Positions 5,994 to 38,631 of a DNA stretch of 64,000 nucleotides are shown in pieces; position 1 is the first letter of the stretch, and every line of letters begins with the position of its first letter. Below the pieces are notes generated by a model. The model did no database searches, was not told the DNA's origin, and saw only the letters and a program-made list of their open reading frames with translations. Origin of the DNA: a virus. The DNA lies in the IMG/VR virus record IMGVR_UViG_3300025701_000006, positions 1 through 64,000 of that record. One strand, 5' to 3'. A program made the translations under genes and the position numbers.

Positions 5994-6185
5994 ATGGATA
6001 TTACTAAAGCAGAACTAGTGTCAAAAGAAAGACATTATATACTTGATGTACCACATGAAGAAATACCAGACTCTAATTCTTTATCCGGCAAAGACGTACA
6101 AATACTATTTGAAAATAAATACAAAAAAATAGCACGTTCTGTAGAATGGAGAGAAGACTTTTGGAGAATACATTTCTTTATGTAA
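5994..6185 (+). CDS. hypothetical protein
   Basis: 63 aa ORF coupled to the upstream stop. Confidence 0.5.
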   Translation: MDITKAELVSKERHYILDVPHEEIPDSNSLSGKDVQILFENKYKKIARSVEWREDFWRIHFFM

Positions 6186-6196
6186 CTACAAAATAA

Positions 6197-6272
6197 GTCC
6201 TTGTAGCTCAGTGGTTAGAGCACTCCGCTCATAACGGATAGGTCATTGGTTCAAATCCATTCAGGGACACCA
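6197..6272 (+). tRNA. tRNA with CAT anticodon, probably tRNA-Ile2 (lysidine, reads AUA); Met not excluded
   Basis: Cloverleaf with acceptor GTCCTTG/CAGGGAC, D arm GCTC/GAGC, anticodon loop CTCATAA, TTCAAAT T loop, encoded ACCA. Confidence 0.88.
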
Positions 6273-6276
6273 TATT

Positions 6277-6353
6277 GCATCTGTAGATCAATTGGATAGA
6301 TCATCTGCCTTCTAAGCAGAGGGTTGCAGGTTCGAGTCCTGCCAGATGCGCCA
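6277..6353 (+). tRNA. tRNA-Arg(TCT)
   Basis: Acceptor GCATCTG/CAGATGC, anticodon stem TCTGC/GCAGA with loop CTTCTAA, TTCGAGT, encoded CCA. Confidence 0.93.
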
Positions 6354-6404
6354 ACTAACTAAACTAGTAAAAAGCTTAACGTTAGCGACCGTAATAAAAA
6401 TAAA

Positions 6405-6587
6405 ATGACTAAATTACAGCTATTAAAAAACGCAAAAAACTACAAATCAGACTGTAAAGCATATTACTCTCAATATCTAGAACTGCAGTCTGAGGGTTTA
6501 GTACAATGGTCTCTAGGGATGGCATTCTTAACCGAGAAAGGTGAATGGGAAATCACTAGATTGGAGATGACAGATGATTACGTATAG
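6405..6587 (+). CDS. hypothetical protein
   Basis: 60 aa ORF after the tRNAs. Confidence 0.5.
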   Translation: MTKLQLLKNAKNYKSDCKAYYSQYLELQSEGLVQWSLGMAFLTEKGEWEITRLEMTDDYV

Positions 6588-6948
6588 CACAAACTTTATG
6601 GGCCCTATAAGCACACAGTGGTTCGTAGAACGAGGATTGACGAAGAAAGTCAAAAGAGTTCACCGCTCTAGTATTATTGCTGAAAAGTTTGGTGCGAAAG
6701 TCGGTGATGAGTATGAAATAGATGAACTGACCGAAAACTATGCTGGTGGTCGTATTGACATTCGTGATGATAGCAAAGAAGGTTATGACGGTTGGAATGA
6801 GTATGCTGTAAAGATTATGCACGGTGAAGATTGGAATGCATTGTCCGAGTACCTAGATGGCTTAGAAACAGAAACGTTAGTAAGTTATGACGAACTTATT
6901 AAACAGTTTGAAAACCAGTATGGTAAGAACATAAGATGGGCAGAGTAA
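6574..6948 (+). CDS. hypothetical phage protein
   Basis: 124 aa, GGAG SD, TAATG coupling to the next gene. Confidence 0.65.
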   Translation: MITYSTNFMGPISTQWFVERGLTKKVKRVHRSSIIAEKFGAKVGDEYEIDELTENYAGGRIDIRDDSKEGYDGWNEYAVKIMHGEDWNALSEYLDGLETETLVSYDELIKQFENQYGKNIRWAE

Positions 6949-7559: not shown

Positions 7560-7802
7560 ATGAAACTAATTAAATTCGAAGCACCTTGGTGCGGACCTTG
7601 CAAAATGCTATCTAAAACTATGGAAACTATCGAAATCCCTTTCGAAGTAGAAGTAATTAACATTGATGAAACACCTGAACTAGCTATGAAGTATAGCGTC
7701 AGGGGAGTCCCTACAGTTATCTTACTAGATGACAATGGCGACGTAAAAACTACCCATGTAGGTGCTCTAACAAAAGAGCTATTTATTGAAAAATTCTTAT
7801 AA
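7560..7802 (+). CDS. thioredoxin
   Basis: WCGPCK active site, VRGVPT cis-Pro loop. Confidence 0.92.
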   Translation: MKLIKFEAPWCGPCKMLSKTMETIEIPFEVEVINIDETPELAMKYSVRGVPTVILLDDNGDVKTTHVGALTKELFIEKFL

Positions 7803-7829
7803 CTAACAGCAAAATAAGAGAGAGCTACA

Positions 7830-8099
7830 ATGCATTTAGATTGTTTAGGACATCCAATTAGAGTAGGTGATACAGTACTTACAGCAAGGTATTGTAGAGC
7901 TGGTTTTGATACTACCACTAAAGTACTAAAAGTAAACAAAAGCACTATTGTTTTAGCTATAGATAGATATACCTACGACTATTCTTTAGGGGACTATGTT
8001 AAAGAATCACACAGTATTAAACGGTTTCCTTACCAAATGGTAGTAATAGACAAACAATTACAACATAACCAAGAAGAATTTCCGGAGTATATGCTATGA
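7830..8099 (+). CDS. hypothetical protein
   Basis: 89 aa, ATGA overlap with the next gene. Confidence 0.6.
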   Translation: MHLDCLGHPIRVGDTVLTARYCRAGFDTTTKVLKVNKSTIVLAIDRYTYDYSLGDYVKESHSIKRFPYQMVVIDKQLQHNQEEFPEYML

Positions 8100-18271: not shown

Positions 18272-18946
18272 ATGGAAACAATAGAGCCTATCCAAGTATC
18301 TTATAAACATACTAATGATGCTAAAACCGCTAAGGCCTGGCTAGATAGTCTACCAGATCTTTTTGCTGCTGACTTTGAAGCAGCTATTAGGTATACTAAA
18401 AAAGATATAGAAGAAGCTAAAGCTATTGTTGAAGATGAAAGCATACCTAAAATAGAAAGAATAGAAGCTAGTTCAATAGCAACTGCTACAGCATTAGGTC
18501 ATCCTTACCACTGTACCATTACACATTGCAGTATTGCGTACACGGAAAAAGACGCTTATGTCTTTATTATCGATGCACAACCTATAGCAGATGTTGTTCT
18601 TAACTTTCTAACATCTACTGTAAGAACGCAAGTATGGCATAATTACAGCTATGATGGCAGGCTAATAAGGTATTACGCAGACAAAGACGCTATTAATGTT
18701 GAAGATAGCCAAATATTTGCAAAAACTCTAATAAACCATGTAGATACTTTTAAAGCTAAAACAAGACTAAAAGATTTAATGGGGGAGTTCTACGGAGACT
18801 GGGCAATATCTGCTGATAACTTTACATTAGAACAGCAATATGAAGAACATGTACTGCATTATGCAGCTATAGACGCATGCGCAACGTTTAAACTATGGGA
18901 ATACCTAAATGATTTCGCAAAAGAAAACAAAATACAGTCCGCATGA
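18272..18946 (+). CDS. 3'-5' exonuclease domain of family A DNA polymerase, as a separate ORF
   Basis: ExoI ADFE, ExoII HNYSYD, ExoIII YAAIDA. Confidence 0.8.
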   Translation: METIEPIQVSYKHTNDAKTAKAWLDSLPDLFAADFEAAIRYTKKDIEEAKAIVEDESIPKIERIEASSIATATALGHPYHCTITHCSIAYTEKDAYVFIIDAQPIADVVLNFLTSTVRTQVWHNYSYDGRLIRYYADKDAINVEDSQIFAKTLINHVDTFKAKTRLKDLMGEFYGDWAISADNFTLEQQYEEHVLHYAAIDACATFKLWEYLNDFAKENKIQSA

Positions 18947-20744
18947 CCAGTTACCGGCACCAGAACCTAAAACAATAGAGTATGACGTAGATCACTTCTA
19001 CAAAAACACTGCTAGATACCTAGTTAAAGACACTGTGCGGGTTATGGACAACGGTTTAGCCATTGACTTGAACAAAGTTATTGAGCTAGAAGAAGTACTC
19101 GTAGAACAGCTTACAGAGGTAGATAAAGAACTAGCGTCTAATAAGTATATCGAACAGTATTTAAACCAACGCTATGCTACGCAAATAAAAGAGTATAAAA
19201 AAGACCGTAAATCTAAAATGCGTAATGCAGACTACTATTTAAAGGAATTTAAACCTTTTGATATGATGCATAGAAGTTACTTTATGGAAGAGTACGCAAG
19301 TGCTAAAGGCTGGAGTAAGCCCGAAGAAAAGCTTCCTACTGGTGTTAGTAAATGGCCTGCAAACCTTGTTAAAAAGTATGCAGCTACTAATAGGCTATTA
19401 AAATCTTTACTAGATAAGACTATACCACTAAATACACCAGCAGCTGTTAAAGCTATGGAAAAACTAGCCAAAGACAAAGCTGATATGTACAATCAAAAGT
19501 ACTTGGATCAGGTAAAGTCTCCTGATGTAAAATATCCAGTATTTAATCCGGCTTCTTCTACACAAAAACAAGAATTGTTTAAGATGCTAGGCTTTGTGTC
19601 ACAAAAAGTTTCTAAAAAAACAGGTTTACCTTCCTGGGACAGAGACGAAATAGAAAATATTAATAAATCTACTAGAGATGAGGATATAAAATCTTTTACT
19701 CAAAGTTTTATAGACCATTCTTTTGCTGCGATAGTAAAAAACAACTTTATTGCTGCTTTTTACAAATACACAGTACAAGGCAGATTATACGGCCAGTACA
19801 AACTTTTAGGTGCTAAAACAGGACGTTACACAAGCAGTAACCCTAACATGTTAAACATGCCTTCAACTAAATCTAGGTTTGCTAAACCTGTTAAAAAATG
19901 TTTTGTAGCACCAGAAGGTAAAATCATACTAGCTGCAGATTACAGTGCTTTGGAAGACAGAGTAATTGCATCTTTATCTAGGGATGTTAACAAATGTGAT
20001 ATATTCTTAAAGAATCTTGATGGTCATTCACTAAATGCACTAGGCTATTTTCTGCCAAGAATTGAAAACCTTATGGATATCACAGGAGATACACCTACTG
20101 ACGCTATTAATTTTAAAAAACTAGTGGACAGTGGTGATTCCGTAGCAGATGCAATTAGACAAGAATCTAAAGGTCCTACCTTTGGCTTGGCGTATGGTGC
20201 TTACCCACCTAAAATTGCTGCTACTCTAAAAATATCTTTAGAAGAAGCACAAGAAATCTTTGATAATTATCACAATGTACTGTATCCTGGTATAACAGAT
20301 TATAGACAAAACTACGTACTACCTACCGCAAAAACACAAGGTCAATTACATCTAGGATTAGGGTTTACCCTAAAAACAGACGACCCTGAAAAAGATATAC
20401 GTACGCTAGCTAACGCTACATGCCAGTTTTGGTCTATACTCACAGCATTAGTAATAAATAAAATGCATGTACTTATCGATCAGATAGGATACCAAGAAGA
20501 CGTAAAAGTAATATCAACTATATATGATTCAATATATTTTGAAGTTACAAACGACCCTAAAATAATTAAATGGGTTAACGATAATCTCATAGCTACTATG
20601 CTAGTAGATTTTATGGAAGATCAGACAGTTGTAAATGAAGCAGAAAGCGACATAGGTTTTAACTGGGCAGAAATGCTTACTATACCTAATAATGCTACTG
20701 TTGAATGTATTGAAGACACTTTAAAGAAACTACAAGAATTGTAG
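18909..20744 (+). CDS. family A DNA polymerase, polymerase domain
   Basis: TGRYTSSNPNMLNMP, motif A ADYSALEDRV, motif B RQESKGPTFGLAYG, motif C IYDSIYFE. Confidence 0.92.
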   Translation: MISQKKTKYSPHDQLPAPEPKTIEYDVDHFYKNTARYLVKDTVRVMDNGLAIDLNKVIELEEVLVEQLTEVDKELASNKYIEQYLNQRYATQIKEYKKDRKSKMRNADYYLKEFKPFDMMHRSYFMEEYASAKGWSKPEEKLPTGVSKWPANLVKKYAATNRLLKSLLDKTIPLNTPAAVKAMEKLAKDKADMYNQKYLDQVKSPDVKYPVFNPASSTQKQELFKMLGFVSQKVSKKTGLPSWDRDEIENINKSTRDEDIKSFTQSFIDHSFAAIVKNNFIAAFYKYTVQGRLYGQYKLLGAKTGRYTSSNPNMLNMPSTKSRFAKPVKKCFVAPEGKIILAADYSALEDRVIASLSRDVNKCDIFLKNLDGHSLNALGYFLPRIENLMDITGDTPTDAINFKKLVDSGDSVADAIRQESKGPTFGLAYGAYPPKIAATLKISLEEAQEIFDNYHNVLYPGITDYRQNYVLPTAKTQGQLHLGLGFTLKTDDPEKDIRTLANATCQFWSILTALVINKMHVLIDQIGYQEDVKVISTIYDSIYFEVTNDPKIIKWVNDNLIATMLVDFMEDQTVVNEAESDIGFNWAEMLTIPNNATVECIEDTLKKLQEL

Positions 20745-20757
20745 AATTTATTCTAAA

Positions 20758-20960
20758 GAGCAGGGTGCCTTCCTACCTTTTTAGCCTTTCCGGTGGGGTG
20801 TGCTCGCTAATCACCGGACTTAATTTACCTGGTGGTAACTTAGCAAGGGGGGAGACCTCCTATTAGCCTTACTAATGGGGTGCTAGATAAACATTAGACG
20901 AGCAAGGTTCATAATACCTATTCCGCCTTCCCAGTGGGGTGCTCAATAATCACTGGGACT
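20758..20960 (+). ncRNA. three tandem copies of an unassigned structured element (three-way junction plus pseudoknot)
   Basis: Units 20758-20820, 20840-20899 and 20900-20960 show compensatory changes in three helices, a GAGA tetraloop and G-U pairs on the + strand. Confidence 0.7.
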
Positions 20961-20977
20961 AATTTAGGAGCTATACC

Positions 20978-21388
20978 ATTAAAATAGAATTACCAATTTA
21001 CTGGACACAAGAGTTCAAGACTAAAAACGACAAAACCGTTTTAGTAGGTATGAACTGGTACCGTAATGCGTTTTACCACGCACAAAACAAAATGAAAAAA
21101 GACTTCCAAGAACTAGTATATAAACAGCTAGGTGACGAAGTTATTAGTGATCAATTTACCTTAGATATAGGTATATATTACAAAAACGCTTCTTGCGATG
21201 GTGCTAACATAGCAGCACTAATAGAAAAATTTACCCTAGATGCGCTTCAAGAGAACAAAACTGTGGTTAACGACAACGTTAAATACCATGTAGGTAGTTC
21301 CTGGAAAATATTAGGGCAAGATAAAAATAATCCGAGATGCGAAATCTCGATAACAAAAAAATTAACAGAGGAGACTTTAAGTGCTTGA
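20978..21388 (+). CDS. RusA-like Holliday junction resolvase, probable ATT start
   Basis: MNWYRNA, CDGANI...DAL...DN, DKNNPRCEI; AGGAG SD 7 nt before an in-frame ATT at 20978. Confidence 0.75.
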   Translation: MKIELPIYWTQEFKTKNDKTVLVGMNWYRNAFYHAQNKMKKDFQELVYKQLGDEVISDQFTLDIGIYYKNASCDGANIAALIEKFTLDALQENKTVVNDNVKYHVGSSWKILGQDKNNPRCEISITKKLTEETLSA

Positions 21389-23108
21389 TTTTGCAAAAGA
21401 GCTACTTAAGAAACATTATTGTAAGCCCAATGAATCTATTCATGAAGCTTTTAAACGAGCTAGTGACTGCTACGCTACTGACCAAGAGCAAAGTGAACGA
21501 ATACAAGACTATCTTAAGAAAGAATGGTTTATGTTTAGTTCGCCTATTCTAAGTAACGCACCAGCAAAAGGTGAAAAAACTAAAGGCTTGCCTATTAGTT
21601 GTTTTTTAACCTATGTACCAGACTCTATCAAAGGTCTATGCGATCATACTACTGAAGAACGATACTTATCGGTCAAAGGTGGTGGCGTAGGCGGACACTG
21701 GTCTGATGTAAGATCTATCTCTGATAAGACCCCAGGCGTTAATGGCTTTTTGCATACCGTCGATGCAGATATGGTGGCCTATCGTCAAGGTAAAACTCGT
21801 AGAGGCAGCTATGCTGCATACTTGGATGTTAGTCATCCAGAGATCATCGAGTTTATTAAAATGCGTACTCCTACTGGAGATCTTAACCGTAAGAACCTAA
21901 ACCTTCATCACGGTGTAAATATTACTGACGCTTTTCTTGAAGCAGTCAATGATGATTTAGAATGGTCTCTAATAGATACACATAATGGGGAAGTAGTAGA
22001 AACTGTACGTGCTCGTCATATATGGGAAGAGATTTTAACAACTCGATTCCGTACTGGCGAACCATACATTAACTACCTAGACGAAGCAAATCGCAAAATG
22101 CACCCAGCGTTACAGAACCTAGGTCTTAAGATCCACGGCAGTAACCTGTGTAACGAAATCCATTTACCAACAAACAAAGATCGTTCAGCAGTATGCTGTT
22201 TATCATCTGTCAACCTAGCTAAGTTTGACGAATGGAAAGACAATCCTGTGTTTATTGGTGACCTTATCGAATTGTTAGACAATGTTTTACAGTTCTTTAT
22301 TGACCATGCTCCAGACGCTTTAGAAAAAACACGATACTCCGCTATCCGTGAACGTTCTTTAGGCCTAGGTGCTATGGGTTTCCATGACTATTTAATGCAG
22401 CACTCTATTCCTTTTGAAAGTAGTTTAGCAATATCTATTAACAAAAAGATGTTTAGCAGTATTAAAAAGCAAGCAATAGCGAAGACTAAGGAACTAGCTG
22501 TGCTACGTGGCGAAGCTCCAGACGCTGTAGGTTACGGTGTACGAAACACTCATTTATTAGCTATTGCCCCCAACGCAAATAGCTCAATTATCTTAGGTGT
22601 TAGCCCATCTATCGAACCAAGAGCATCTAACTGCTACACCCACAAAACACGAGTTGGCAGCTTCTTAGTCAAAAACCCTTCACTAATCGCTGTACTAGAT
22701 ACATATAATCGAAATACAGAAGATACGTGGAAATCTATCATGAAAAGTGATGGCTCTGTACAGCACTTAGACTTTTTATCTGCAGAAGAAAAAGACGTAT
22801 TTAAAACTGCGTTCGAGATTGACCAAAACTGGGTAGTCGAAATGGCTCGTAGCCGTCAAGAATACCTATGCCAAGGACAATCTGTTAATATCTTTTTCCC
22901 TGCCGGTGCTACTAAAGGCTATGTAAATGCTGTGCACAGACGTGCTTTTAGACCTGCTGATGATGTAGGTGAACCACTGAAAGGTGTGTATTACTTACGT
23001 ACAGAAGCAAGTAAAAAGACTGAAAAGATTAACGTTAAAGTAGAGCGTAATGCTCTTAAAGATGGCGTACAAGGCTCTTTAGACGCCTGTATCGCATGTG
23101 AGGGATAA
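21381..23108 (+). CDS. nrdA: class I ribonucleotide reductase alpha subunit, no ATP cone
   Basis: PISCF, SNLCNEI, VCCLSS, AIAPNANSS, YYLRT, C-terminal CIACEG; GTG start. Confidence 0.95.
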   Translation: MLDFAKELLKKHYCKPNESIHEAFKRASDCYATDQEQSERIQDYLKKEWFMFSSPILSNAPAKGEKTKGLPISCFLTYVPDSIKGLCDHTTEERYLSVKGGGVGGHWSDVRSISDKTPGVNGFLHTVDADMVAYRQGKTRRGSYAAYLDVSHPEIIEFIKMRTPTGDLNRKNLNLHHGVNITDAFLEAVNDDLEWSLIDTHNGEVVETVRARHIWEEILTTRFRTGEPYINYLDEANRKMHPALQNLGLKIHGSNLCNEIHLPTNKDRSAVCCLSSVNLAKFDEWKDNPVFIGDLIELLDNVLQFFIDHAPDALEKTRYSAIRERSLGLGAMGFHDYLMQHSIPFESSLAISINKKMFSSIKKQAIAKTKELAVLRGEAPDAVGYGVRNTHLLAIAPNANSSIILGVSPSIEPRASNCYTHKTRVGSFLVKNPSLIAVLDTYNRNTEDTWKSIMKSDGSVQHLDFLSAEEKDVFKTAFEIDQNWVVEMARSRQEYLCQGQSVNIFFPAGATKGYVNAVHRRAFRPADDVGEPLKGVYYLRTEASKKTEKINVKVERNALKDGVQGSLDACIACEG

Positions 23109-23112
23109 GATT

Positions 23113-24042
23113 ATGTTACAAGAATTAAGCAGAACGTATAAGCCATTACGATATCCACAAGCTGAAGAGTATCGCCTTCAGTCTGAAGACATCCATTGGG
23201 TTGTAAAAGAAGTCGAAATGAGTAAAGATTTAGAAGATTATAAATCTGCTTCCCCAGAGGAAAAAGAATTTATTAAAAACATTTTATCTATCTTTACACA
23301 ATCAGACTTTAATGTTGCCGCAAACTATTTGCCTTTAATCAATAAGATTAAAAACAATGAAGTACGTGGCATGCTGACTAGTTTTATGGCGCGTGAGTTT
23401 ATCCACCAAGAAGGTTACGCACACCTTAACGAATCTTTAGGTTTTCCAGATAGTTACTACTCTGATTTTTTAAAACATCAAGAAACCTTAGAAAAAGACT
23501 CTTACATGGCAACTACCACGTTTGAAAGCTTCGGCTTAAAACTGGCTAAAGGTATTCTGCTTGAAGGTGTTAGCCTCTTTGGTGCTTTTGTATTACTTAA
23601 GAACTATGAGCGAGTAGGAAAGTACCTAGGTACCTGTACAATTAATGAGTGGTCTTTACGTGATGAATCTCTTCACGTTGAAGGCAACGCATGGCTGTTT
23701 CGTACCTGGTGCCAAGAAAACCCGAAAGAAGTGAATGACTCTTTTAAAAAGCACATTTACACGATGGCTCGTGAAATTGTAGAACTTGAAAAAAAGTTTA
23801 TTGACTTTGCATACGGTGACTATCAACCTCCTAAGTTAGACAAAGAAGATGTAAAAAAGTATATCGAGTTTATAACCGATAGACGTTTATTACAACTAGG
23901 CCTTAAGCCGAATTTTGGTTGTTCTACTAATCCACTACCCTGGATGGATGAATTAAACAACGGAAGTTCGCATGCCAACTTCTTCGAAAAACGTGTAACT
24001 GATTACGCAGTTGCAGGGATGGAAGGTGATTTTACTTACTAA
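23113..24042 (+). CDS. nrdB: class I ribonucleotide reductase beta subunit
   Basis: FTQSD, EFIHQEGY, EGVSLF, RDESLH, NFFEKRVTDY. Confidence 0.95.
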   Translation: MLQELSRTYKPLRYPQAEEYRLQSEDIHWVVKEVEMSKDLEDYKSASPEEKEFIKNILSIFTQSDFNVAANYLPLINKIKNNEVRGMLTSFMAREFIHQEGYAHLNESLGFPDSYYSDFLKHQETLEKDSYMATTTFESFGLKLAKGILLEGVSLFGAFVLLKNYERVGKYLGTCTINEWSLRDESLHVEGNAWLFRTWCQENPKEVNDSFKKHIYTMAREIVELEKKFIDFAYGDYQPPKLDKEDVKKYIEFITDRRLLQLGLKPNFGCSTNPLPWMDELNNGSSHANFFEKRVTDYAVAGMEGDFTY

Positions 24043-24063
24043 AGTAAACCACAACAGGTAAAG

Positions 24064-24087
24064 AAGGGGGCATTAGCCTCCTTTTTT
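24064..24087 (+). terminator. intrinsic terminator after nrdB
   Basis: AAGGGGGC-atta-GCCTCCTTTTTT. Confidence 0.75.
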
Positions 24088-25885: not shown

Positions 25886-26057
25886 GTCTATCTTCCAGGC
25901 TATCGGAATTGTTTTTGTGTGTGTGCTGTTAGTAGTACTAACTATTGCTACAATGTACTTAAGTTACATACTAGGCATAGGCTTCATGCTTATATGCCTA
26001 GTAGGTATTACTTATTACTTGCTAAGACTATTTAGTCCCAAAAACATCCATACCTAA
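25878..26057 (+). CDS. small 2-TM membrane protein (59 aa, TTG start, not in ORF track)
   Basis: AAGGA SD; MIKSIFQAIGIVFVCVLLVVLTIATMYLSYILGIGFMLICLVGITYYLLRLFSPKNIHT. Confidence 0.55.
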   Translation: MIKSIFQAIGIVFVCVLLVVLTIATMYLSYILGIGFMLICLVGITYYLLRLFSPKNIHT

Positions 26058-29000
26058 GTTTATAAGTGGGGGCATAGCTACAGTTGTTATTATATCAACA
26101 GGTGTGTATATTGGTGTTAATCCAAACACACCGTACTCATCCCCCGCTTTAATTAGCAAAGATTGATCTTGAATCATTTCTAGATCTAACCCAATACCTG
26201 CTCCGGCTAGCGTTATGGCAGTCCTGACGGCATGCTGACTACCTGCCTGAGTAATTACATGCTGTATACGTTTTACGTATTTAGTAAACATCAACACACC
26301 AATCCTATTTAAATACTCCTCGCCTCTGCTGTTAGGTAAGTTATAATTAACAAAAGAGTTTAAAAGTTGCGTGTGTCTGCTTGTTTTAGCTGTAGCCAAA
26401 AATTGCTCTCTTTCTGCTTTACCTAGTACCCTTCTTCTATCTGCTTTACCCATCCTATTTATCTGCTTTCTATATGCTAAAGGCAGGTCTCTTTTCCCAT
26501 CCGCTTGTTGTTCTTCAATTATTTTTTGCTTTCTATTCATTACATCTCTAGCAATTAAATCAGACATTTGTAACACTTCTTGATTTACTTTATACCATGC
26601 AGTCTCTTTACTTAAGTAAAGCCACTGTAAAGGAGTTTTAATTAAAGAAGGCACCTTACCTAACAACTTGTCCATTCCATCGCTAATCTTATTAGTATCA
26701 CCCAGCTTATACATATTTACATCTTCTATTACAGCTTGGTACATTCCTAAATCAAACAACTCTTTAATATCACTTTCTGACATTTCTTTTTCTATACGTT
26801 TAATTTCATTACGTAGGCGAGTAGCCTTATCGTTATAGTCACTAATTTCTTCATTATTTTTAAATCTAGTAGTGCTGTACTCTGCCACCAAAGCGTTTAG
26901 TTCTACCTTTTTAGCTTCTACTTGTTTTTGTTTTTTCATAAATTTACGAACGTCTTTAAAGCTATTAGCATAAGCTCCAACAATTTCTGTTAAACCCATT
27001 CCTGTATTTAAGGCATACAAAACATTAGAAATTATGTTTACTATTAGTATCACAGGCATCTTAAGAAGTATGTTACCTTTAGCTACCTTAACAAGATCTA
27101 CAAAGTAAGCTTCAAAAATATTTATAATACGTTTAATAGTACTAGGTAACTTGTTTACTCCATAAGCATCTGTAAATCTGGCATGCGAGTAGCCAAAATA
27201 TTGGTCCATCAACATACTAGGGATAGGTAAGCTTTTATCTTCCCTGCTGTTAATAAACCTTTGAAAGGAACTAGGTAGCTGATTAAACAGTTTACGCATT
27301 TCTGGATCTGAAGATTCCGCACTTATTAGGCTATACTCCATTAAGTTATTTTTGCTGTTAGGATTATCGTAAACATCTCGTAGGTTTTGTTTAATAAGCT
27401 TTAACGCATTGTCATTTTGTTTTTCTCTAGCAACTTTGTCTATTAATGTACCTGAAGTCTTTGAAAGTACATCGACTATACTTTTATTTTGCTTTAAAAA
27501 CTTATTTTTATCTTGTTTGTTCATCATGTTTCGGTAATCTACTACATTACCTAGGGCGTCTAAAACAGGTACAGATCCTTTTGGTATATCTTTAAAAGAC
27601 TTACCGTTATAAAGTTCTTCATTTATGCGTATTGCTTTAGCATTTAACTGGTTTCTATCAGCTTCAAACCACGCTTGTGCATGTTTTTTAGAATCTTGAA
27701 ATTGTGCATACCTTGCTTCTCTTAGAGTCATACCACGACTACCAGGATTTCCTAGACCTACAACACCACTTTGTCTTTCAGGCCTGCTATAGGTATCACT
27801 AATGTAAAACCCTATAGGTTCTGCACCTGATATATCGTTACCATCAAACACTGATGCTAGCTTAAATCCTTGCTTTTCAAGCTCTTCTTGCTCTGATACT
27901 AAAGCGTATTTAGTCTCTATGCCATCATCAAACAACTGCTTTATGTAGCCTTCTATCATGTGCGATGAATCATTTTTAAACAGTGCCTTTTCTGAGCCTT
28001 GTTTAAACGCTTCATATAGATTAACTACAGTCCTTACACCAGATTCTTCATTATTAATAAGGTCTACTACTAGTTGCTTGCTAAGGCCTTTTTGTTCTTC
28101 TAAAGCACTTAAAGAAGCCATTTCTTCTATTAACGCTTCTAATTCTTTATTTGTAGGTAAAATGTCGCTAGTCAAATATCCTTTTGCTATATTTCTACTA
28201 CTAGTATTTTGTGCTTCATGTCCTTCACCCGTGACCATAAACTCGCCTAATCCTTTAGCTTGTGCTACTAGCCAATTACCTCTTTTAGGATCTAGTTTTT
28301 TTATTCTTTTCTCTAGACGGTTTATTGCTTTAACTCTATACGCATGATCACCTATTAGTTTACTTACCTGATCAGTTGAATAACCCTTACCGTAGTTTTT
28401 GTTTTTATCAAACAGACTACTGGCATTTGACTCTAATAGTATTTCTGTTAAAGCTATCTTTTGAGGGTCGTTAAGCTCCTTACTAAACGCGTTTGTTATA
28501 GCTGTAGCTACGTTACCTACATGAGTGTTTCTGTATAAATCAATGTTATTAGTTTTTAAACCTAGGAGTTCTACAGGTCCTGATATCTCTTCTGTTACTT
28601 TAGGAAGAATACTTCTAACAATTTCTCTTATAGAGTTATCTGGCTTAATACCGTAACCAGTAAAAAAAGCTCCTGCAGCATCTCGGTAGTAGTTGTTGTA
28701 TATAGCCTTAGCAAAAAACTTACTAAAGAAAAGAACCTTCTGTATATGGTTCATATTTTGCGGTATTTCTACTTTATTTTCTGTATCAAATACTTTTGAT
28801 GCTGCACCATCTAGGAACTCTTCAATTCTGCCGTCTGTACGGTCTATTAAATCGCTTACTTGTGTAAGTAAGTTAGGATTGTCAGTCAGTTCTTTATCTG
28901 CAGTATTGTTTATTTCCGCTAACTTAAACGCTAAAGTATGTACTTCTTTTCTAAGGCTTTCGTTTTTGTTTTTAAAAGTATAGTTACCCATAACTGCATT

Positions 29001-30266
29001 TATTACGTCTGAAAAGAATGTTTTAATGGCCTCAAACATACCTGTTTTTGTTTTATCTTTTAGTTTTACCCCTTCAAGTAGCCCCATAAACCCGGGATTA
29101 GTTAAAGAGTACGCTATAAACTCATCATTAGACGTTTCGCTATTAAATATGTAATCGTATCTGTCTTTAGCTTCCTTTGACGTTAGAGCAGGCTCTGCAC
29201 GTTTTATGTCTTGCCATGTGATGTTTTTACGTGCCTGTGCCATCAAAAAGTTAAGGCGCTCTTTTAACGACGTAGCCTCTCTGCCTTCACTTCTAAGAGC
29301 CCAAGCTGTCATTGTATGTACAGTTTCATGCATATACACTTCAGCGTTGCTCATATTAGAGCTAGTGAGTTTACTGGTGTTTAACAACATATGCTCTTTG
29401 TCTATATCAACCCATCCAGCAGCATGTTCTTGATTTTCATTAATAAAAATATTCATTCTTCTAAAGAAATGCTCATGCATGTTATCTAGTAAGCTGTTAT
29501 ACCAATAATACATCTTGTCAGTAGTAGGTTTACCTCCTATAGCGTGTAGATCTGCTAGCATATTCTTCATATCTTCTACACTACCATGTACGTAATTTTT
29601 CTTTAGGCTGCTTTTTTCATACCTAAAAGTTCCCTCATCAAACTGCTCGCTCGATTTTAAGATGTCCTCTGCACTAGCATCACTTTCTACAATTTTTCTC
29701 ATACTAGCTAAATGACTGTTGGCACTCGTAGCTAGCTCTTCTCTACGCAGCTCTCTACTGACCCCTGAAGTAGTGCTGGCTATAACGGACCCAATACTTT
29801 TAAACTGAGGTATATACATTTTTATTTGACGTTCTTTAGATGCCCTAGATTCGTTTCTATCTAAATCAAAAGTATAAGTCTGTATATTTTCTTTACCTTT
29901 CCTAGTAACTTTAAGTTCTATTACTTCTATATTATTGGCATCTTTAGTTACTAAAGCGGACTTAACTACGTAATCAGCTCTTTCAGTACCTTCAGTAGGG
30001 CGTTTGCTTACAGCAGCCTTAAACACTTGCCCTAGCTGTTGCTTAGCTAGAACAGTACTTACGTCGTTAGTAAGCTCTGCTCGTGCAAACTCGTCTAACG
30101 CTGTAAAATCTTTTTCATTTAACAATTTAAGGGCTTTTTTATTTCTAGCTATAGACTCAGATAGTACTTCACCTTCTTTAGTGACTAGCATAGTTTTTTC
30201 TAGCTTTTCAGCTCTTGTTATACTAGCCTTAAAGGCTTTTTCTACTGTATTTATATCACAAACCAT
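26028..30266 (-). CDS. virion ejection protein equivalent to the C-terminal domain of N4 vRNAP, with a zincin-like motif
   Basis: HETVH...DEFIAYSLTNP, FVNYNLP...YLNRIGVLMFTKY; 1412 aa; TAATG-coupled to the polymerase gene. Confidence 0.75.
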   Translation of the reverse strand: MVCDINTVEKAFKASITRAEKLEKTMLVTKEGEVLSESIARNKKALKLLNEKDFTALDEFARAELTNDVSTVLAKQQLGQVFKAAVSKRPTEGTERADYVVKSALVTKDANNIEVIELKVTRKGKENIQTYTFDLDRNESRASKERQIKMYIPQFKSIGSVIASTTSGVSRELRREELATSANSHLASMRKIVESDASAEDILKSSEQFDEGTFRYEKSSLKKNYVHGSVEDMKNMLADLHAIGGKPTTDKMYYWYNSLLDNMHEHFFRRMNIFINENQEHAAGWVDIDKEHMLLNTSKLTSSNMSNAEVYMHETVHTMTAWALRSEGREATSLKERLNFLMAQARKNITWQDIKRAEPALTSKEAKDRYDYIFNSETSNDEFIAYSLTNPGFMGLLEGVKLKDKTKTGMFEAIKTFFSDVINAVMGNYTFKNKNESLRKEVHTLAFKLAEINNTADKELTDNPNLLTQVSDLIDRTDGRIEEFLDGAASKVFDTENKVEIPQNMNHIQKVLFFSKFFAKAIYNNYYRDAAGAFFTGYGIKPDNSIREIVRSILPKVTEEISGPVELLGLKTNNIDLYRNTHVGNVATAITNAFSKELNDPQKIALTEILLESNASSLFDKNKNYGKGYSTDQVSKLIGDHAYRVKAINRLEKRIKKLDPKRGNWLVAQAKGLGEFMVTGEGHEAQNTSSRNIAKGYLTSDILPTNKELEALIEEMASLSALEEQKGLSKQLVVDLINNEESGVRTVVNLYEAFKQGSEKALFKNDSSHMIEGYIKQLFDDGIETKYALVSEQEELEKQGFKLASVFDGNDISGAEPIGFYISDTYSRPERQSGVVGLGNPGSRGMTLREARYAQFQDSKKHAQAWFEADRNQLNAKAIRINEELYNGKSFKDIPKGSVPVLDALGNVVDYRNMMNKQDKNKFLKQNKSIVDVLSKTSGTLIDKVAREKQNDNALKLIKQNLRDVYDNPNSKNNLMEYSLISAESSDPEMRKLFNQLPSSFQRFINSREDKSLPIPSMLMDQYFGYSHARFTDAYGVNKLPSTIKRIINIFEAYFVDLVKVAKGNILLKMPVILIVNIISNVLYALNTGMGLTEIVGAYANSFKDVRKFMKKQKQVEAKKVELNALVAEYSTTRFKNNEEISDYNDKATRLRNEIKRIEKEMSESDIKELFDLGMYQAVIEDVNMYKLGDTNKISDGMDKLLGKVPSLIKTPLQWLYLSKETAWYKVNQEVLQMSDLIARDVMNRKQKIIEEQQADGKRDLPLAYRKQINRMGKADRRRVLGKAEREQFLATAKTSRHTQLLNSFVNYNLPNSRGEEYLNRIGVLMFTKYVKRIQHVITQAGSQHAVRTAITLAGAGIGLDLEMIQDQSLLIKAGDEYGVFGLTPIYTPVDIITTVAMPPLINLGMDVFGTK

Positions 30267-33200
30267 TATTTACACCCTTCAATTTTTTCTAATGCACTAA
30301 CTAGGCTATCTACGTCCGAGACACTAGATAACTCATCTACAATCTTACTCTGTACTGATGATTTTACCATAGATAACCCATCAATTACTTTATTAATAGC
30401 TTCAACTACTGTTTTATTTGTTATTTTTGTTTTTCTATTGTTGTAGTATGCTATTAACTTATCAGCTTTTTCAGGGTTTTGAATAATATCCTCTATAACA
30501 TTATCTGCGTTTACATTATCTACACCTAAACGTTTATTTAGTTCTTTAAGCAGGGCCCTAGGAGCGGCCTCAAACACTTTTTTTAGTTCTGCAGCTTTTT
30601 CTGCAGACCTATCTACAGGTACGTCTAATTTAACGGCTTTGTACATATTCTTAAGCGCGTTTTTGTAGCTAAGATCAGCAGAAGTCATACCTTTTTGGTA
30701 CACCGCTCCAGGTGTTCCAACTAGATTTCCGTAGTAAGCACCTTCCATTAAACCATTTTCCCCATACCATAATTCCCTAGCTTTTTTAATGCCGGAAATT
30801 TCGGTTTTTAGGTTGCCTAATACACTTTTAGCCAAAGCAGGAAATGCTTCTTTAACCTTAGGGTCTGCGGCTTTTAGTCCTAATGCTGTAACTTTTTCAA
30901 AATCTTTACTAAAGGTCGTACTACTTATTGTTTTTTCTAACCTATTTGCAAACTCCTGCAGCGCCTCTGCTAGTACATAGTTTTTCTTGCTGTTAATATC
31001 GCTAGGGTTACCTTCAGAGTTAATGGTTTCCATACCTTTTTGGTAAGCAAACCCTGCGTTGTCAGACTGGTTTAAAGGAGCAATTATTGCATCGTGTATT
31101 AAAGTTAAAGCACGTAACTGCAAATCGTTCATCATTAAGCTTATCTCAGCGCCATCAATAGCATGAAACGGTAATACAGAACCAGAACTTATTGCTTCTT
31201 CTAGGTACCTAACTAAAGGCGTTACAGTCCTAGTTTTAGTATTTTTGCCTTCTCCAAGCATAGTCTGTGGTTTTTTACGGCTTAGCTCAATCTCATTAGG
31301 AGATCTAGTGGACGTAGTGACTACAGCTATGACTGCTTTTTTCTCTTTAGCACCGGTAAGCGGGCCTACAAGGTATGGAAAGTCGTCCCATAACTCTTCT
31401 AGTACTTTTGCATGATCTTCTAAAGTAACTACGTTATTAGGGTTTCTTTTTTGAATATCCTTAAGCTTGTCTACACGTTTTTTATCAAAAATACGAAATG
31501 CTACTTTAAACCCATCGTTAATAGCGTTTTGTACTTTAATAAAAGGCTTAAAGTTTGTTTCAAAAACAGTTTTTACGGCTTCTCCGTATGTAGCACTTAC
31601 AGTAAACTCTAACAGCTGCTCTAAATTTCTAGCAGTATTAGTGCCTTTACGTGTTTGCGAAATAACCAATGGTACTTTAAGTTTAATATCTTTTAGTCTA
31701 AAGTCTTTTAGGGCTTGCTGGAGCTCTAATATATTTTTTATCTTTTTATCGCTTTTTGGGTATAAAAACTCTCCTCCTGCTGCCAGTAACTTTTCCGCTG
31801 TTTCTTTTGCAGTTAAGTCATTTTCAAAATCACTAGTCGCAATACCTTTTGCTATATCTTTAGCAACAGAAATACTTAAGTTTTTGACTATTCTTCCTAC
31901 GCTAGCACTGTAGTTGAATATCATAAACGGGTCTTTAAATAACGCACGTAATTTTTTGTCTATACTACTAGCAACACCTGAAGATCCAATAGTTTCACCT
32001 CCAGGGAGTAACTGTTTAATAGCTTCAAAGACTTTACTTCCAGACCTGCCTTCACCTCTTGATACCGTCAAAGAAGTACTGCCCGACGTTACTTCTTCAT
32101 TAACTAGGGTGATAGTGTCCGTAGCCATATTCTCATATGAATCTAAAAATCCTATCTCTCCTTTTTTTCCTGCAGCTAAAATATCCGCTGCAGACATACC
32201 TTGTGAAGGGTCAAATGGAATACCATCCCCTTTAAAACTAGACTGCAGTAGTACATCTTGATACGATTTAGTAATAATACCTACTCGGGCAAAATGAGAA
32301 TGCATATCATCAAGTATAGGCATCTGTTGTATTTTATTGGCAAAACCACTAGTTAATGAGTCAAACTCTAACGACAGTGCAGAAGTAACTTTACCATTAC
32401 CAGTAAGGGCATCTTGTACTTTTTCTAAAAAATCTAGTGCTTGTAATGCGTGGGAAAGATGTTCCGCTTCAAGTTCATACTCAATACCTTTCATATCAGC
32501 AGGATCTGCATCACTGCTACTGTCTGTATTAGCGTCACCAGTAACTTCGGTATTTAAGGTTTCAATTGTAAACTTGCCTGTAGACATAATAGACTTTTTA
32601 GCTTCTGCTATTTCTGCTTTATTCATACTAAGCACAGCATTACCATAGTCTATAATATCTTTAACATCCATCTTATCTACGCCCTTACCTAGGGCTTGTC
32701 CTAGAGCTAATCTCACAGTAAAGCTTTGATCTGCGTCCAAGGGGTCACTTACACCTTCTACGTTAAACTCTAAACCACCTTCTGTATTTGTATTTACATC
32801 ATAAGTAAGTCTATGCAGTTTAGGTACGATAAAAAATCTATGCAGTTTATCTGTTTGAGGTTGTGTAGTATTTGAATCTAGCATAAACCTATTGTTACTT
32901 GCATAAAAGTAAGGATAGTGCATAGATGGATCTAAGTTACCTACTCTATCCATTTTTTCTCTAAGTAATCTAAGCTCATCAATGCTTTTTTCTATGTCTC
33001 TATTTTTAGCTTCTTGTACTTCTTTCTCATCGTAAAACAGGCTATCAAATTTATCACTTGTTAAATCAATAAAGCCTAGTAACGTTTTGATGTTGCTTTC
33101 ATCTGCATCTACTGCTTCTAAGAACTCGTCAACAAGGTTAACATCGATACCATACTCGGTTTCCATAGCAAGCTTCATAGTCTCTTTAGCTTCCTCAGGA

Positions 33201-36200
33201 ACAGTTATACCTGCTATATCGTTACGAACCTCACTAACAGCTTTGTTGATACGATCTTTTGTAAGAGGAGAAAAAGAAGGCTCTTTACGCTCTGTAGTAG
33301 CCTCAGGAAACCCTTTTACTGCTCCTTCGTACTTTTCTACAAAAGCAGTTACTTCTTCTGTAAGAGCGTTATTAGTAAAGTTACCCTGACGTACCGGTCT
33401 ATCTTTCAGATGAATAAAGAAAGTTTTAGTTTCAATTTCTCTAACTTCTCCATCTTTAAATAACCTAGCTATGTCATTTGAACTAGGGCTAGTACTGTCC
33501 AATATTCCTTGTTCTTGTGCTATTAATACTGCCATGTTGCCAAGGTCAGCAAGTAATGCCTCGTACTCTGCTGAAGATGTAGTGCTGTTTTTCTTTTTAG
33601 ACAGACCAAGTTGCTTTAAGGTAGCTTTGCCCAAAGAGTTAGCTACAGTTTTAAGAAGTGCTCCGTTATCCCTAGCAAAATCACGCATTTCTTTAGTTAC
33701 TTCATGTGGCTGGAGGCCTAGCATGGTAGCTATATCTTCGTCAGACTTATAACCTCTAGACACCTTTGCTTTATCATTAGCAGCCATTTCGCCTATAGCT
33801 AGGTACATAGCAGCTAAAACTTCTTTGTTAGGTTTGCCTTTGTTGTTAAACACTAAACCTCTAGCAGGGGAGTTATGCAAAAACAAGTTACCAGGTAAGA
33901 ATTTACCATTTACTCTTATATCAGTTTGGTCTGATAGCTCTGCTTCACTAACTTTTGCTAAACTTTTATCTGCTGCAGTTACAAATTTATTTGCTGCTGT
34001 TTTTATGGCGTAAGGTAAGTTATCAAAAGATAGAGAATTAAGCACAGTAGTTTTGTCTGCTTTTACAAGCTTACCTGCATCCTGAACTACTTTTCTTGTA
34101 CCTAAGAATATATGTTCATTACCGTAGAATATAGTACCTCTACCTTTATTAGCGGCTTCATATCCTTCTATTGCTTTATCAGACAAAGGATCCCTAGATA
34201 GTTTTACTACAACTTCACCAGTCTTGGATTTTAAAAATAGTATCTCATACAGATCTTTTTTGTTTTTAGAAAAGGACTTCTCACCTAGTATACTGTTAAT
34301 AACCGATTTACTTGTATTGCCTATACTTTCTAATAACCTACTAACAGCTTTTTCTTTTTTATCAAAAGAAAGGTCTTGATCTATTATACCTTGCCAATCT
34401 TTTAAAGCTTGCTTACCTGCTTTTCCTTTTTCCTCTTGAGCTTCAATGTACTTGGTTACACCGGCCTCTAGCGCTTTATCTTTAAATGCGATTGGGTCTG
34501 GATCTGTAGCTCCAAGAACTGCTTCTGCTTCATTTTTTACATCGTCTATAAAACGACGTTCTAAAAAAGATGTTAGCCTATCACTTTTACTACTAAAGCT
34601 GTTGTCTTTTACTGTATCGAATAAAGTAGAATACTCTTTTTTAGCAGCAGCTTTGGCTTCATCAGTAAGGGCTTCGCCTGTAACAGAGTCGATAGATGTC
34701 TCTATAGATCTATAAAGAGTCACCAATGCCTCTTTGTTATCCTCACGAAACTGCGCAGCAGTATTGCTTTTCTCTAGTTTTTCTTTGTAATTACGTAAAG
34801 CTTTTTTATTATCCGCAGTTTCTTTAATTAAGATATGGCGAGACTTATCTTTTAGAATAGCGTAACCTTTATCCTTTATTTTTTTAAGCAACGCTTCTTT
34901 ACCTAGTGCTACTTCTTTGGTAAGTTTTCCTTGAACTAGGTCAGAGTCTAGTACAATAGTTGCTCCTGCTTCCATAGCAGCCACTAAGGAAGCTTCACCT
35001 TCTACACCTAAGTCAGGAACTTTAAAACCTTTTTTAATACTTTTAGTACCTACACTATTTATAAGTACTACGTCATCAGCAGAAAACTCTTCATTATTTA
35101 TTAAAAAACTATTAGATTTATAATAGTCACCTTTAAGAGCCCATTTAGCTGTAGTATCTTTTCCTAATATTACTTTGTTTACTTCAGATACTTTTTTGTT
35201 TAGGTCATTAAGAACTTTACTAACGCTACTTAAGTAACTGGTGTCTGCTTTACGTGCAGTTTTACTGCGTCCTTCTTTTACAGGTATAGTAATACTTCCA
35301 GACATAACAGAAATATCATCAGTTTTAAAACTAGCATTGCTGCTGATAGTCTGCATTTCTCTTTTTATATCTTTTAAGTATACAGATTTCCTAGCTATTA
35401 AATCTTTAGCACCCTTAATGTTAGGTACCATTTTACCGTTTTTAAACTCGACAGTAATTAGATAAGGGTCATCATACTTTTTAGTCTTATTATTGTACTT
35501 GTTGTACTCAGTTTTGACATATTGGGTTTTTTTAGACGTTAACGGTTTTTTATTTAAATCTGCTGCTACCCTTTTAGCTTCTTCTATACCTCTATTTAAA
35601 GATGTAACTGAAGCGCTAACAGAACTATTAATCCTAGATAAAGCTACCATTTCACTGTTTATAGCTTTTTTGTTGGGATTAGAGCTTTCTAGTAGCCCTT
35701 TAAGCCTAGATATCCTAGCTGCGTAGCCAGTACTTCCTTTAGTAGCTTCATCTTCGACCGTAGTATAACTTTTTACTAAACTGTCATAACGCTCTACACT
35801 TACATTGTTACGGGTAGCGAAGCTTTTCATTGTAGTAGTAAATGCTTCATCGTAAGACCTGCCACTACCTAGTAGTGTATTAACTATGCGCTCCGCGTCT
35901 ACACTACGAGTGTAATCTGTGTATTCCTTTTGCTCTTCATCAAGGTTAGGAGCTGACCCTAATACATTTCCACTTGTAGTAGTGCTATTTTCTACCGCAG
36001 TAAAATTCTCTATACTATTATTTCTAACAAAATCTTGAATAACATCATAAGTCTCTTCTAATGTCTGACTTGTTTTTCCGGTAAGTGCAGACTCTAAAGC
36101 AACTAATTCAGGAGCAACCGAATTTGGCTCTATAGAACTATTGCTGTAACTTCCTGATTTAAACGTTGATACTATGCTATCAAAAGCTTTTTCTGCGGTA

Positions 36201-38554: not shown

Positions 38555-38584
38555 TAAAAAATCCTTAGTAGGTAATCTACAGGT

Positions 38585-38595
38585 ATTATAACACA
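38585..38595 (-). promoter_or_regulatory. extended -10 promoter for the vRNAP gene
   Basis: TGTGTTATAAT (TGnTATAAT) directly after a terminator. Confidence 0.6.
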
Positions 38596-38631
38596 AAAAC
38601 CCCCTAGTTCCATATAGAGACTAAGGGGTTT
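38595..38631 (-). terminator. intrinsic terminator after the gp51-like gene
   Basis: CCCCTTAGT...ACTAGGGGG followed by TTTTT on the - strand. Confidence 0.65.

Follow-up and report, generated by a model that had tools for sequence, protein, structure and literature searches.

A family of pseudoknotted RNA modules, single or in tandem, behind the polA gene of AD45-like Alteromonas phages

The window analyzed in this study is a stretch of 64,000 nucleotides (nt), positions 1 to 64,000 of the 78-kb IMG/VR virus record IMGVR_UViG_3300025701_000006. Between the stop codon of polA and the ribosome site of the gene for a RusA-like Holliday junction resolvase, it carries three tandem units of ~60 nt on the + strand (20758-20958). 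Our comparison with related phages indicated that these units almost certainly belong to a previously uncatalogued family of self-folding RNA modules, 58-70 nt in length, on the + strand of the replication-gene transcript. With regard to their role, we tentatively favor a nuclease-resistant module that would bound and stabilize the 3' end of the polA message and that may also be set free as a small, stable RNA. An initial annotation of the window had described three tandem units with two helices (P1, P2) and a pseudoknot (PK), and all of these were recovered in place.

Each unit is built around a three-way junction. P1, a helix of 5 bp (RRGCA/UGCYY), closes the junction, P2 is a hairpin (ARGGY/RCCU) within it, and P3 is a 3-bp helix (CCU/GGG) whose 7-8 nt loop pairs with the 3' tail over 6-8 bp to form PK. 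The consensus reads, in the 5' half, RRGCA, ARGGY-loop-RCCU, a junction of 3-6 nt (often GUUGA), G-CCU-U, and 7 nt ending in UG as the PK 5' strand. The 3' half continues with GGG, UGCYY, the linker RNUAAW, CA plus 5-6 nt as the PK 3' strand, and the tail NCYUAWUUU, and about 20 nucleotides per unit are invariant. P3 and PK can stack into a helix of ~10 bp with a first loop of 1 nt, and the strand made of the P1 3' side and UAA would run back alongside it. Very stable H-type pseudoknots have a stacked geometry of this kind, in which the first loop is 1 nt long and the third strand is A-rich. Compact members of that type, such as the luteoviral frameshift knots and the SAM-II and preQ1-II riboswitches, likewise have a short stem 1 (here P3) stacked on stem 2 (here PK), a 1-nt first loop and a conserved A-containing strand (here UAA) along stem 1. 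The element differs from them since its third strand also forms P1, which closes the extra hairpin P2, and it has no preceding slippery site, no internal Shine-Dalgarno (SD) sequence and no known ligand.

The evidence for this fold comes from 21 units in 17 distinct loci. Alignment A4 was made with a model without the pseudoknot, and covariation was scored on P1, P3 and PK against 500 shuffles. In A4, P1 was paired in 100% of the cells, with a change from G-C to U-A in 2 units and from A-U to G-C in 5. P3 was also paired in 100% of the cells, with one C-G to G-C swap in unit L005b, and PK in 96%, where six of the seven pairs vary and do so by double changes only. Taken together, 98.1% of the cells of these helices were paired compared with 88.0% in the shuffles, and nine pairs showed compensatory double changes. 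The covariation score was 0.334 against 0.136 for shuffled alignments, none of the 500 shuffles reached the observed value, and controls with slid helices stayed at or below 0.08. Alignment A3 gave the same covariation picture. P2 was re-derived unit by unit and found in all 21 units with 3-8 bp; two of its G-C pairs hardly vary, with G-U in three cells, while the fourth pair is U-A in 9 units, C-G in 6, G-C in 1 and a wobble in 4. The covariation of P1, P2 and PK, which had been proposed from the three window units, thus extends across the family, and the short P3 that had been suggested there is present as CCU/GGG and is supported by the swap in L005b. The pseudoknot-free folding energies of single units were unexceptional (z -0.7 to -1.4), as is expected of minimum free energy z-scores when the pseudoknot is left out of the folding. 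The case for the fold therefore rests on comparison and not on thermodynamics.

The RNA lies on the + strand, in the sense of the mRNA, in agreement with the initial annotation. The fold is strand-specific because, read from the opposite strand, the invariant U-G pair of P3 and the scattered G-U pairs would turn into A-C mismatches. This observation bears on the idea that the repeats act at the DNA level, as an origin, a packaging site or a promoter hairpin for an N4-type virion RNA polymerase, or that they are a chance repeat. It is known that N4 uses DNA hairpins as promoters. The AD45 phages are related to N4 (PMC3821669). On the other hand, the strand specificity speaks against a DNA element, helices of 3-8 bp combined with a pseudoknot and compensatory changes are RNA-like, and the P2 loops have 4-14 nt compared with the 3-nt loops of N4 promoters. 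With E-values of ~1e-20 for the units and conservation across 17 loci, a chance repeat is excluded, and we regard this whole group of explanations as highly improbable.

Relatives were collected by protein-anchored searches with RusA and the polA C-terminus, by exact-pattern scans of viral, metagenome and species-genome collections, and by covariance-model searches over all sequences fetched. Across the entire 78-kb record, the covariance model R1, built from ten units, found exactly three copies (74, 39 and 77 bits; E-values of ~1e-20 for two of them and ~1e-9 for one), all on the + strand, and no copy on the minus strand. The window holds three units, loci L003 and L005 hold two each, and the 14 other loci hold one each (AD45-P1, L002, L004, L008, L091, L129, L130, L131, L133, L136, L142, L143, L146 and L171). 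All 17 loci lie in AD45-like (N4-related) Alteromonas phages or marine contigs, and the window shows ~70% nucleotide identity to Alteromonas phage vB_AmaP_AD45-P1 across polA to RusA. The polA gene at the element loci is at least 73% identical to that of the window; in phages with a polA of at most 56% amino acid (aa) identity, the element is absent and polA runs straight into other genes. A complete genome (AD45-P1) and a 92%-complete record each carry a single locus.

The scans did not extend the family to other groups. A loose viral pattern scan returned 118 or more loci, and those beyond the AD45-like clade were chance matches according to the covariance model. A relaxed core pattern added one true unit (L171), and a metagenome scan with the strict pattern added three new true loci. 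Two further candidates, L176 (29 bits) and L170 (24 bits), were rejected as chance matches as they lie antisense inside open reading frames (ORFs) and their helices are broken. In other groups of phages, none of the pattern-scan hits was a true copy. No bacterial copy was found in a strict core-pattern scan of one genome for each of 185,579 species, a scan that divergent copies could escape. Apart from chance matches, this last scan returned one phage-like contig filed under an archaeal metagenome-assembled genome (MAG), L136. This 26.6-kb contig (CALIBI010000067.1, filed as an uncultured Sulfolobales MAG) has the arrangement of AD45-like phages, with polA, then the unit and then RusA, and it is most likely a phage contig that was mis-binned.

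The initial annotation had assigned the units to no known RNA class, and our Rfam comparison bore this out. At the gathering score, Rfam 15 matched only two tRNAs in the whole window, and at E<=10 the region 20600-21100 gave only a chance CRISPR-DR6 match at 21013-36. In the searchable literature, we found no description of the element; it may nevertheless be among the ~10,000 nameless viral RNA candidates of a bulk catalogue from 2023. The words 'intergenic' and 'terminator' are absent from the main text of the AD45 genome paper, in which 'promoter' occurs once (PMC3821669), and the searchable literature also yielded no infection transcriptome. In our rating, the fold family is new, while its general kind, the structured intercistronic phage RNA, is known. 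The element lies in the replication operon of a widespread marine phage group, and its covariation is very clean. The family is small and tractable, with a 60-nt unit and one locus per genome, and the cultured pair of AltAD45-P1 and Alteromonas macleodii AD45 carries a single copy. The functions under discussion (3' cap, decoy RNA, riboswitch, ribozyme) are separable by a few standard experiments. If the fold is nuclease-resistant, arrays with knots that do not pair with each other would be ready-made orthogonal RNA insulators. The restriction to one phage clade limits the general weight of the finding.

In the window, unit 1 (20758-20818, + strand; 74.3 bits with R1, E 3.5e-19) is of the first-unit kind and is nearest to the single unit of L002 (91% identity). 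Its helices are P1 at 20758-62/20801-05, P2 at 20763-66/20775-78, P3 at 20785-87/20796-98 and PK at 20789-95/20812-18. It has a pyrimidine-rich P2 loop, the linker GCTAAT (20806-11) and an extra TG (20799-800). A tail and spacer follow (20819-20840, + strand), in which the tail CTTAATTTA matches the family tail NCYUAWUUU; a small local hairpin in the spacer (TTACC/GGTAA, 20825-38), seen by eye, is not conserved. Unit 2 (20841-20897, + strand) is the most divergent, with 38.8 bits (E 1.3e-8) for R1 and 44.5 bits for R2. It consists of P1 at 20841-45/20881-85 (TAGCA/TGCTA), P2 at 20846-51/20856-61 with a GAGA loop, P3 at 20867-69/20878-80, the linker GATAAA (20886-91) and PK at 20872-77/20892-97. 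Unit 2 lacks the A/U tail and abuts unit 3, with only AC (20898-99) between them. Unit 3 (20900-20958, + strand; 77.1 bits with R1, E 5e-20) is of the distal-unit kind, with P1 at 20900-04/20940-44, P2 at 20905-08/20916-19 with an A/U loop, P3 at 20926-28/20937-39, the linker AATAAT (20945-50) and PK at 20929-36/20951-58. Its PK sequence CCCAGTG is similar to that of the distal units of L003 and L005, and the conserved A/U tail after it is ACTAATTTA (20958-20966, + strand). The terminal GAC of each unit and the GNRA loop noted in the initial annotation are correct for the window, but they are peculiar to it and not features of the family.

The number of tandem copies varies from 1 to 3 per locus. 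Units inside one array are only 65-75% alike, in the window as elsewhere, and their pseudoknot sequences always differ (TCCGGTG, ACTAATG and CCCAGTG in the window). The arrays are old and their units are orthogonal, as the pseudoknots do not cross-pair. Two kinds of units could be recognized. First or single units have G+C-rich knots and P2 loops with 84% pyrimidine and ~4% G, usually with UCCU or CUCCU in them, while the distal units (the third unit of the window, L003b and L005b) share CCCRRTG knots and have A/U-rich loops. L002, the closest relative of the window, has a unit of the unit 1 type only.

One rival explanation is a trans-acting small RNA or decoy. In such a case, the units would be cut from the polA 3' region into stable RNAs of ~65-70 nt, and their core would bind a host or phage protein as a sponge or anti-defense decoy, including a pseudo-antitoxin, or the UCCU-type P2 loop would pair with the SD sequences of target mRNAs. 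The invariant core is best explained by specific recognition, the copy number of 1 to 3 would act as dosage, the units are flanked by A/U tails, the P2 loops of first units are rich in pyrimidine, and such a function would be independent of the downstream gene. However, no partner is known, and composition alone would lead one to expect the complementarity of the UCCU loop to SD sequences of the AGGA type. If the element mimicked a host RNA, a bacterial look-alike would be predicted, but the core-pattern scan of the 185,579 species genomes found none. The likeness to the type III antitoxin RNAs (ToxI, CptI) and to phage pseudo-ToxI lies in tandem pseudoknotted units with A/U-rich flanks on a phage or plasmid. 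In contrast to those RNAs, the present units have 60 nt instead of 34-45 nt and differ markedly within an array. There is no adjacent gene of the ToxN/AbiQ type, the next gene encoding RusA or a 142-aa protein, and no bacterial counterpart was found. The suggestion of pseudo-ToxI decoys made in the initial annotation therefore lost ground, and a small RNA or decoy in general appears somewhat unlikely to us.

The genomic context is constant on one side of the element only. The upstream neighbor is polA in all 17 loci (in the window at 18909-20744, + strand, family A DNA polymerase, Pfam PF00476, E 1e-34), and the element begins 0-75 nt past its stop codon. The gap between the polA stop and P1 is 0 nt in L142, 4 nt in L008 and 10-13 nt in four loci including the window, where the stop TAG (20742-44) lies 13 nt upstream of unit 1. 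It reaches up to ~75 nt in loci with an additional conserved stem-loop between the stop and the unit. This second structured element was observed in one subclade (L129 ~7780-7855, L130 ~3470-3530, L133 ~3475-3533 and L146 ~2090-2165) and is absent from the window; its outer stem covaries (for example, CCACAGG/CCTGTGG versus CTAAAACT/AGTTTTAG), and its inner block is conserved (AAAYCTGAGAGAG...GTATAACAGTT).

On the downstream side, three settings were found. In eight loci the ribosome site of RusA follows the knot, and the last unit ends 16-26 nt before the RusA start codon. In another eight of the 17 loci (L008, L091, L129, L130, L133, L142, L146 and L143), a moron-like cassette abuts the unit ahead of RusA. 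Its promoter is a canonical sigma70 site (TTGNNN-16/17-TATAAT) with a conserved position and a diverged spacer, and in the loci inspected downstream (L008, L091, L129, L130, L133 and L146) a palindrome, TTCTTAA-NN-TTAAGGA, covers the cassette SD. The cassette gene encodes 142 aa, with a different gene in L143; in L008 the cassette occupies 6086-6625 and is followed by a canonical intrinsic terminator and then RusA. The L008 protein, taken as representative of the inserted-gene loci except L143, matched Pfam DUF5856 below threshold (26 bits against a cut-off of 34.6), and a Dps/ferritin-like look is an impression only. In AD45-P1, RusA is separated from the single unit by a terminator-like hairpin. 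In all three settings (RusA SD, promoter cassette and AD45-P1 hairpin), the element is retained with compensatory changes, and at the level of sequence comparison it was shown to be independent of the downstream gene. The tail NCYUAWUUU stands after 18 of the 21 units, whatever follows.

We favor the 3' boundary module because attachment to the polA 3' end and the A/U tail are the constants of the family. In cleavage maps of Salmonella, RNase E prefers RN|WUU. The tail fits this preference and is possibly an RNase E-type site. The element would be carried in the polA mRNA, an RNase E-type endonuclease would cut in the conserved A/U tail, and the compact knot would stop 3'-to-5' exonucleases. 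The upstream polymerase message would in this way be capped and uncoupled from the downstream sequence, and the capped fragment may persist as a small stable RNA. An intrinsic terminator was considered as another explanation of the element and rejected. The terminator scan gave no site at 20745-20980 on the + strand, and the tail begins with NCY before the U run, unlike the phage terminators past the inserted gene and behind nrdB; the latter (24061-24087, + strand) is canonical, with T6 directly after the stem, and is an example of a normal terminator in the window phage. A convincing sigma70 promoter upstream of the element was seen only in L004, and the window has a weak promoter-like site. 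Among RNA libraries, parts of the region were present in four metatranscriptome runs, as low-depth contigs from which neither RNA ends nor strand can be read. Unit 3 and the start of RusA are linked by one contig (20902-21088), and units 1 and 2 were covered by none, a gap that is uninformative. In run X19, one contig ends at 20745, just past the polA stop, and the next starts at 20902, at the start of unit 3, and runs into RusA, both at a depth of 3-5x.

A parallel to the boundary module is found in the REP/BIME elements (repetitive extragenic palindromes and bacterial interspersed mosaic elements) of enterobacteria, which are also structured, intercistronic and variable in tandem number, and to which protection of the upstream message against 3' exonucleases is ascribed. 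REPs are, however, simple palindromes in hundreds of dispersed copies, whereas the present element is a knotted fold with an invariant core. Several points weigh against the boundary module. REP/BIME stabilizers are dispersed in many copies, whereas the element occupies a single locus, and a plain G+C hairpin would be a sufficient barrier to 3' exonucleases, so that the ~20 invariant nucleotides point to ligand or protein recognition or a catalytic core rather than to stability alone. The pyrimidine-rich, often UCCU-like P2 loop of first units is not explained by the boundary model. In addition, the first P1 nucleotide of the last unit lies 77-79 nt upstream of the start codon in 6 of the 7 RusA-type loci measured, and this rather fixed distance hints at a link with the downstream ribosome site.

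Another rival explanation is that of tandem riboswitch aptamers, in which the units would bind a small molecule or ion and tune read-through or translation after polA, of RusA-nrdAB or of the inserted 142-aa gene. The compact junction and pseudoknot with covariation and many invariant unpaired nucleotides fit this proposal, several riboswitch classes are known to occur in tandem, and the last unit lies close to the start codon in the RusA-type loci. RNAalifold also gave an alternative helix, AAGGY/GCCUU, which is mutually exclusive with P2 and P3. However, this helix shows no compensatory changes and is broken in L005b, where P3 is kept. The AD45-P1 hairpin (L001, 3487-3520, AAATCCTCC/GGAGGATTT) lies 3' of the unit, as an expression platform of this kind might; its 3' half was observed to be complementary to the 5' strand and loop of the unit's P2 at 8 of 9 positions, a possible antiterminator pairing in one genome only. 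Neither the RusA SD nor a terminator showed conserved pairing with the element, and the consensus fold of the last unit with the ribosome site shows P2 and PK only and leaves the SD free. In six loci polA stops 0-13 nt before P1, so that terminating ribosomes must unfold unit 1. In the cassette loci, a promoter lies past the element, which thus stands outside the next gene's own 5' untranslated region (UTR) and is conserved nevertheless.

A riboswitch for RusA and nrdAB is hard to reconcile with these data because half of the loci keep the element ahead of a promoter, the SD is free and the core-pattern scan found no copy in bacteria, whereas known riboswitch classes occur in bacteria. The initial proposal that the aptamers control the resolvase and ribonucleotide reductase genes was weakened by the intervening promoter and gene in 8 of the 17 loci, the AD45-P1 hairpin and the lack of conserved SD pairing, and we consider a riboswitch unlikely. 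The gene 32 leader pseudoknot and the gp43 operator of T4 resemble the element, as they are a pseudoknot or hairpin beside a phage replication gene, possibly a protein-binding site, and not in Rfam. They are single copies 5' of the regulated gene, whereas the present element is 3' of polA and is kept when it is separated from RusA.

The initial annotation had also pointed to flaviviral exonuclease-resistant RNA (xrRNA). The order of the helices is the same as in the class 1 flaviviral xrRNA, with P1, P2 and P3 in a three-way junction and then pairing of the P3 loop with the tail 3' of P1, which is supported here by covariation. Both measure ~60-70 nt, contain a conserved core and are found as tandem copies in untranslated sequence beside a replication gene, as is known for flaviviral 3' UTRs. 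This part of the likeness stood, whereas a Pk1 equivalent did not; by eye, alignment A3 showed no consistent complementarity or covariation between columns 1-3, at the 5' flank, and the J2/3 junction strand. The element also has no sequence or Rfam similarity to xrRNA and no P4, and it is intercistronic in a DNA phage. As a directional roadblock of the xrRNA kind, it would act against a 5'-to-3' enzyme (RNase E scanning from the 5' end, Rho or a 5' exonuclease) and shield or insulate what lies downstream, and the 235-nt untranslated gap within the operon would otherwise invite Rho. On the other hand, Gammaproteobacteria such as Alteromonas are not known to have 5' exonucleases of the RNase J or Xrn1 type, half of the loci have a separate promoter for the downstream gene, which leaves little to protect, and no phage xrRNA has been reported in the searchable literature. 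We consider this roadblock improbable.

To the same degree improbable is a new self-cleaving ribozyme class, or a dedicated RNase target, by which the polycistronic transcript would be cut behind polA and ahead of the next gene. In favor of it, the element is phage-borne, stands between cistrons, comes in variable tandem copies and has a small knotted fold with its invariant nucleotides. Its topology partly recalls the hepatitis delta virus (HDV)-like ribozymes, with a 3-bp P3, a loop of 7-8 nt, then the P1 3' strand, and pairing of the loop downstream. Against this, no Rfam ribozyme model matched even at E<=10, and the strand order appears to differ from that of the HDV-like, pistol and twister folds. 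We take it that the strand order or core of the HDV-like, pistol, twister, hammerhead, glutamine and other small folds does not match the element. The prior is also low, as new classes are rare and usually widespread, whereas the element is confined to one phage clade. A broader claim would make the unit a new functional class of RNA, with which the phage cuts or caps its replication-gene message. It would then be a self-cleaving ribozyme of a new type, or else an xrRNA analogue, a knot resistant to nucleases or translocases and the first of its kind to be described for a bacteriophage. This claim is doubtful in our view.

Downstream of the array, the last helix of unit 3 ends 7 nt before the RusA SD, AGGAG (20966-70, + strand), and the probable ATT start codon (20978-80) stands 7 nt past it. 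The RusA-like resolvase (20978-21388, + strand) matches PHROG 1682 (E 3.8e-32) and the AD45-P1 annotation, and the profile aligns from residue 1 of the ATT-started protein. The start is at the homologous position in the relatives, as ATT in L002 and as ATG or TTG in the others; the mechanical ORF list puts it at ATG 21050 instead. It is followed by nrdA (21381-23108) and nrdB (23098-24042), both on the + strand and assigned from ORFs and synteny with annotated AD45-P1 genes.

Elsewhere in the window, the two tRNA genes (6197-6350, Rfam tRNA, 67 and 71 bits) occupy a gap between genes within the block of replication and early genes. Two adjacent giant ORFs on the minus strand (26028-30266 and 30266-38596) encode 1412 and 2776 aa and gave no PHROG or Pfam match. 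A split N4-type virion RNA polymerase is described for the AD45 phages, and the two ORFs correspond to it in size and position (PMC3821669).

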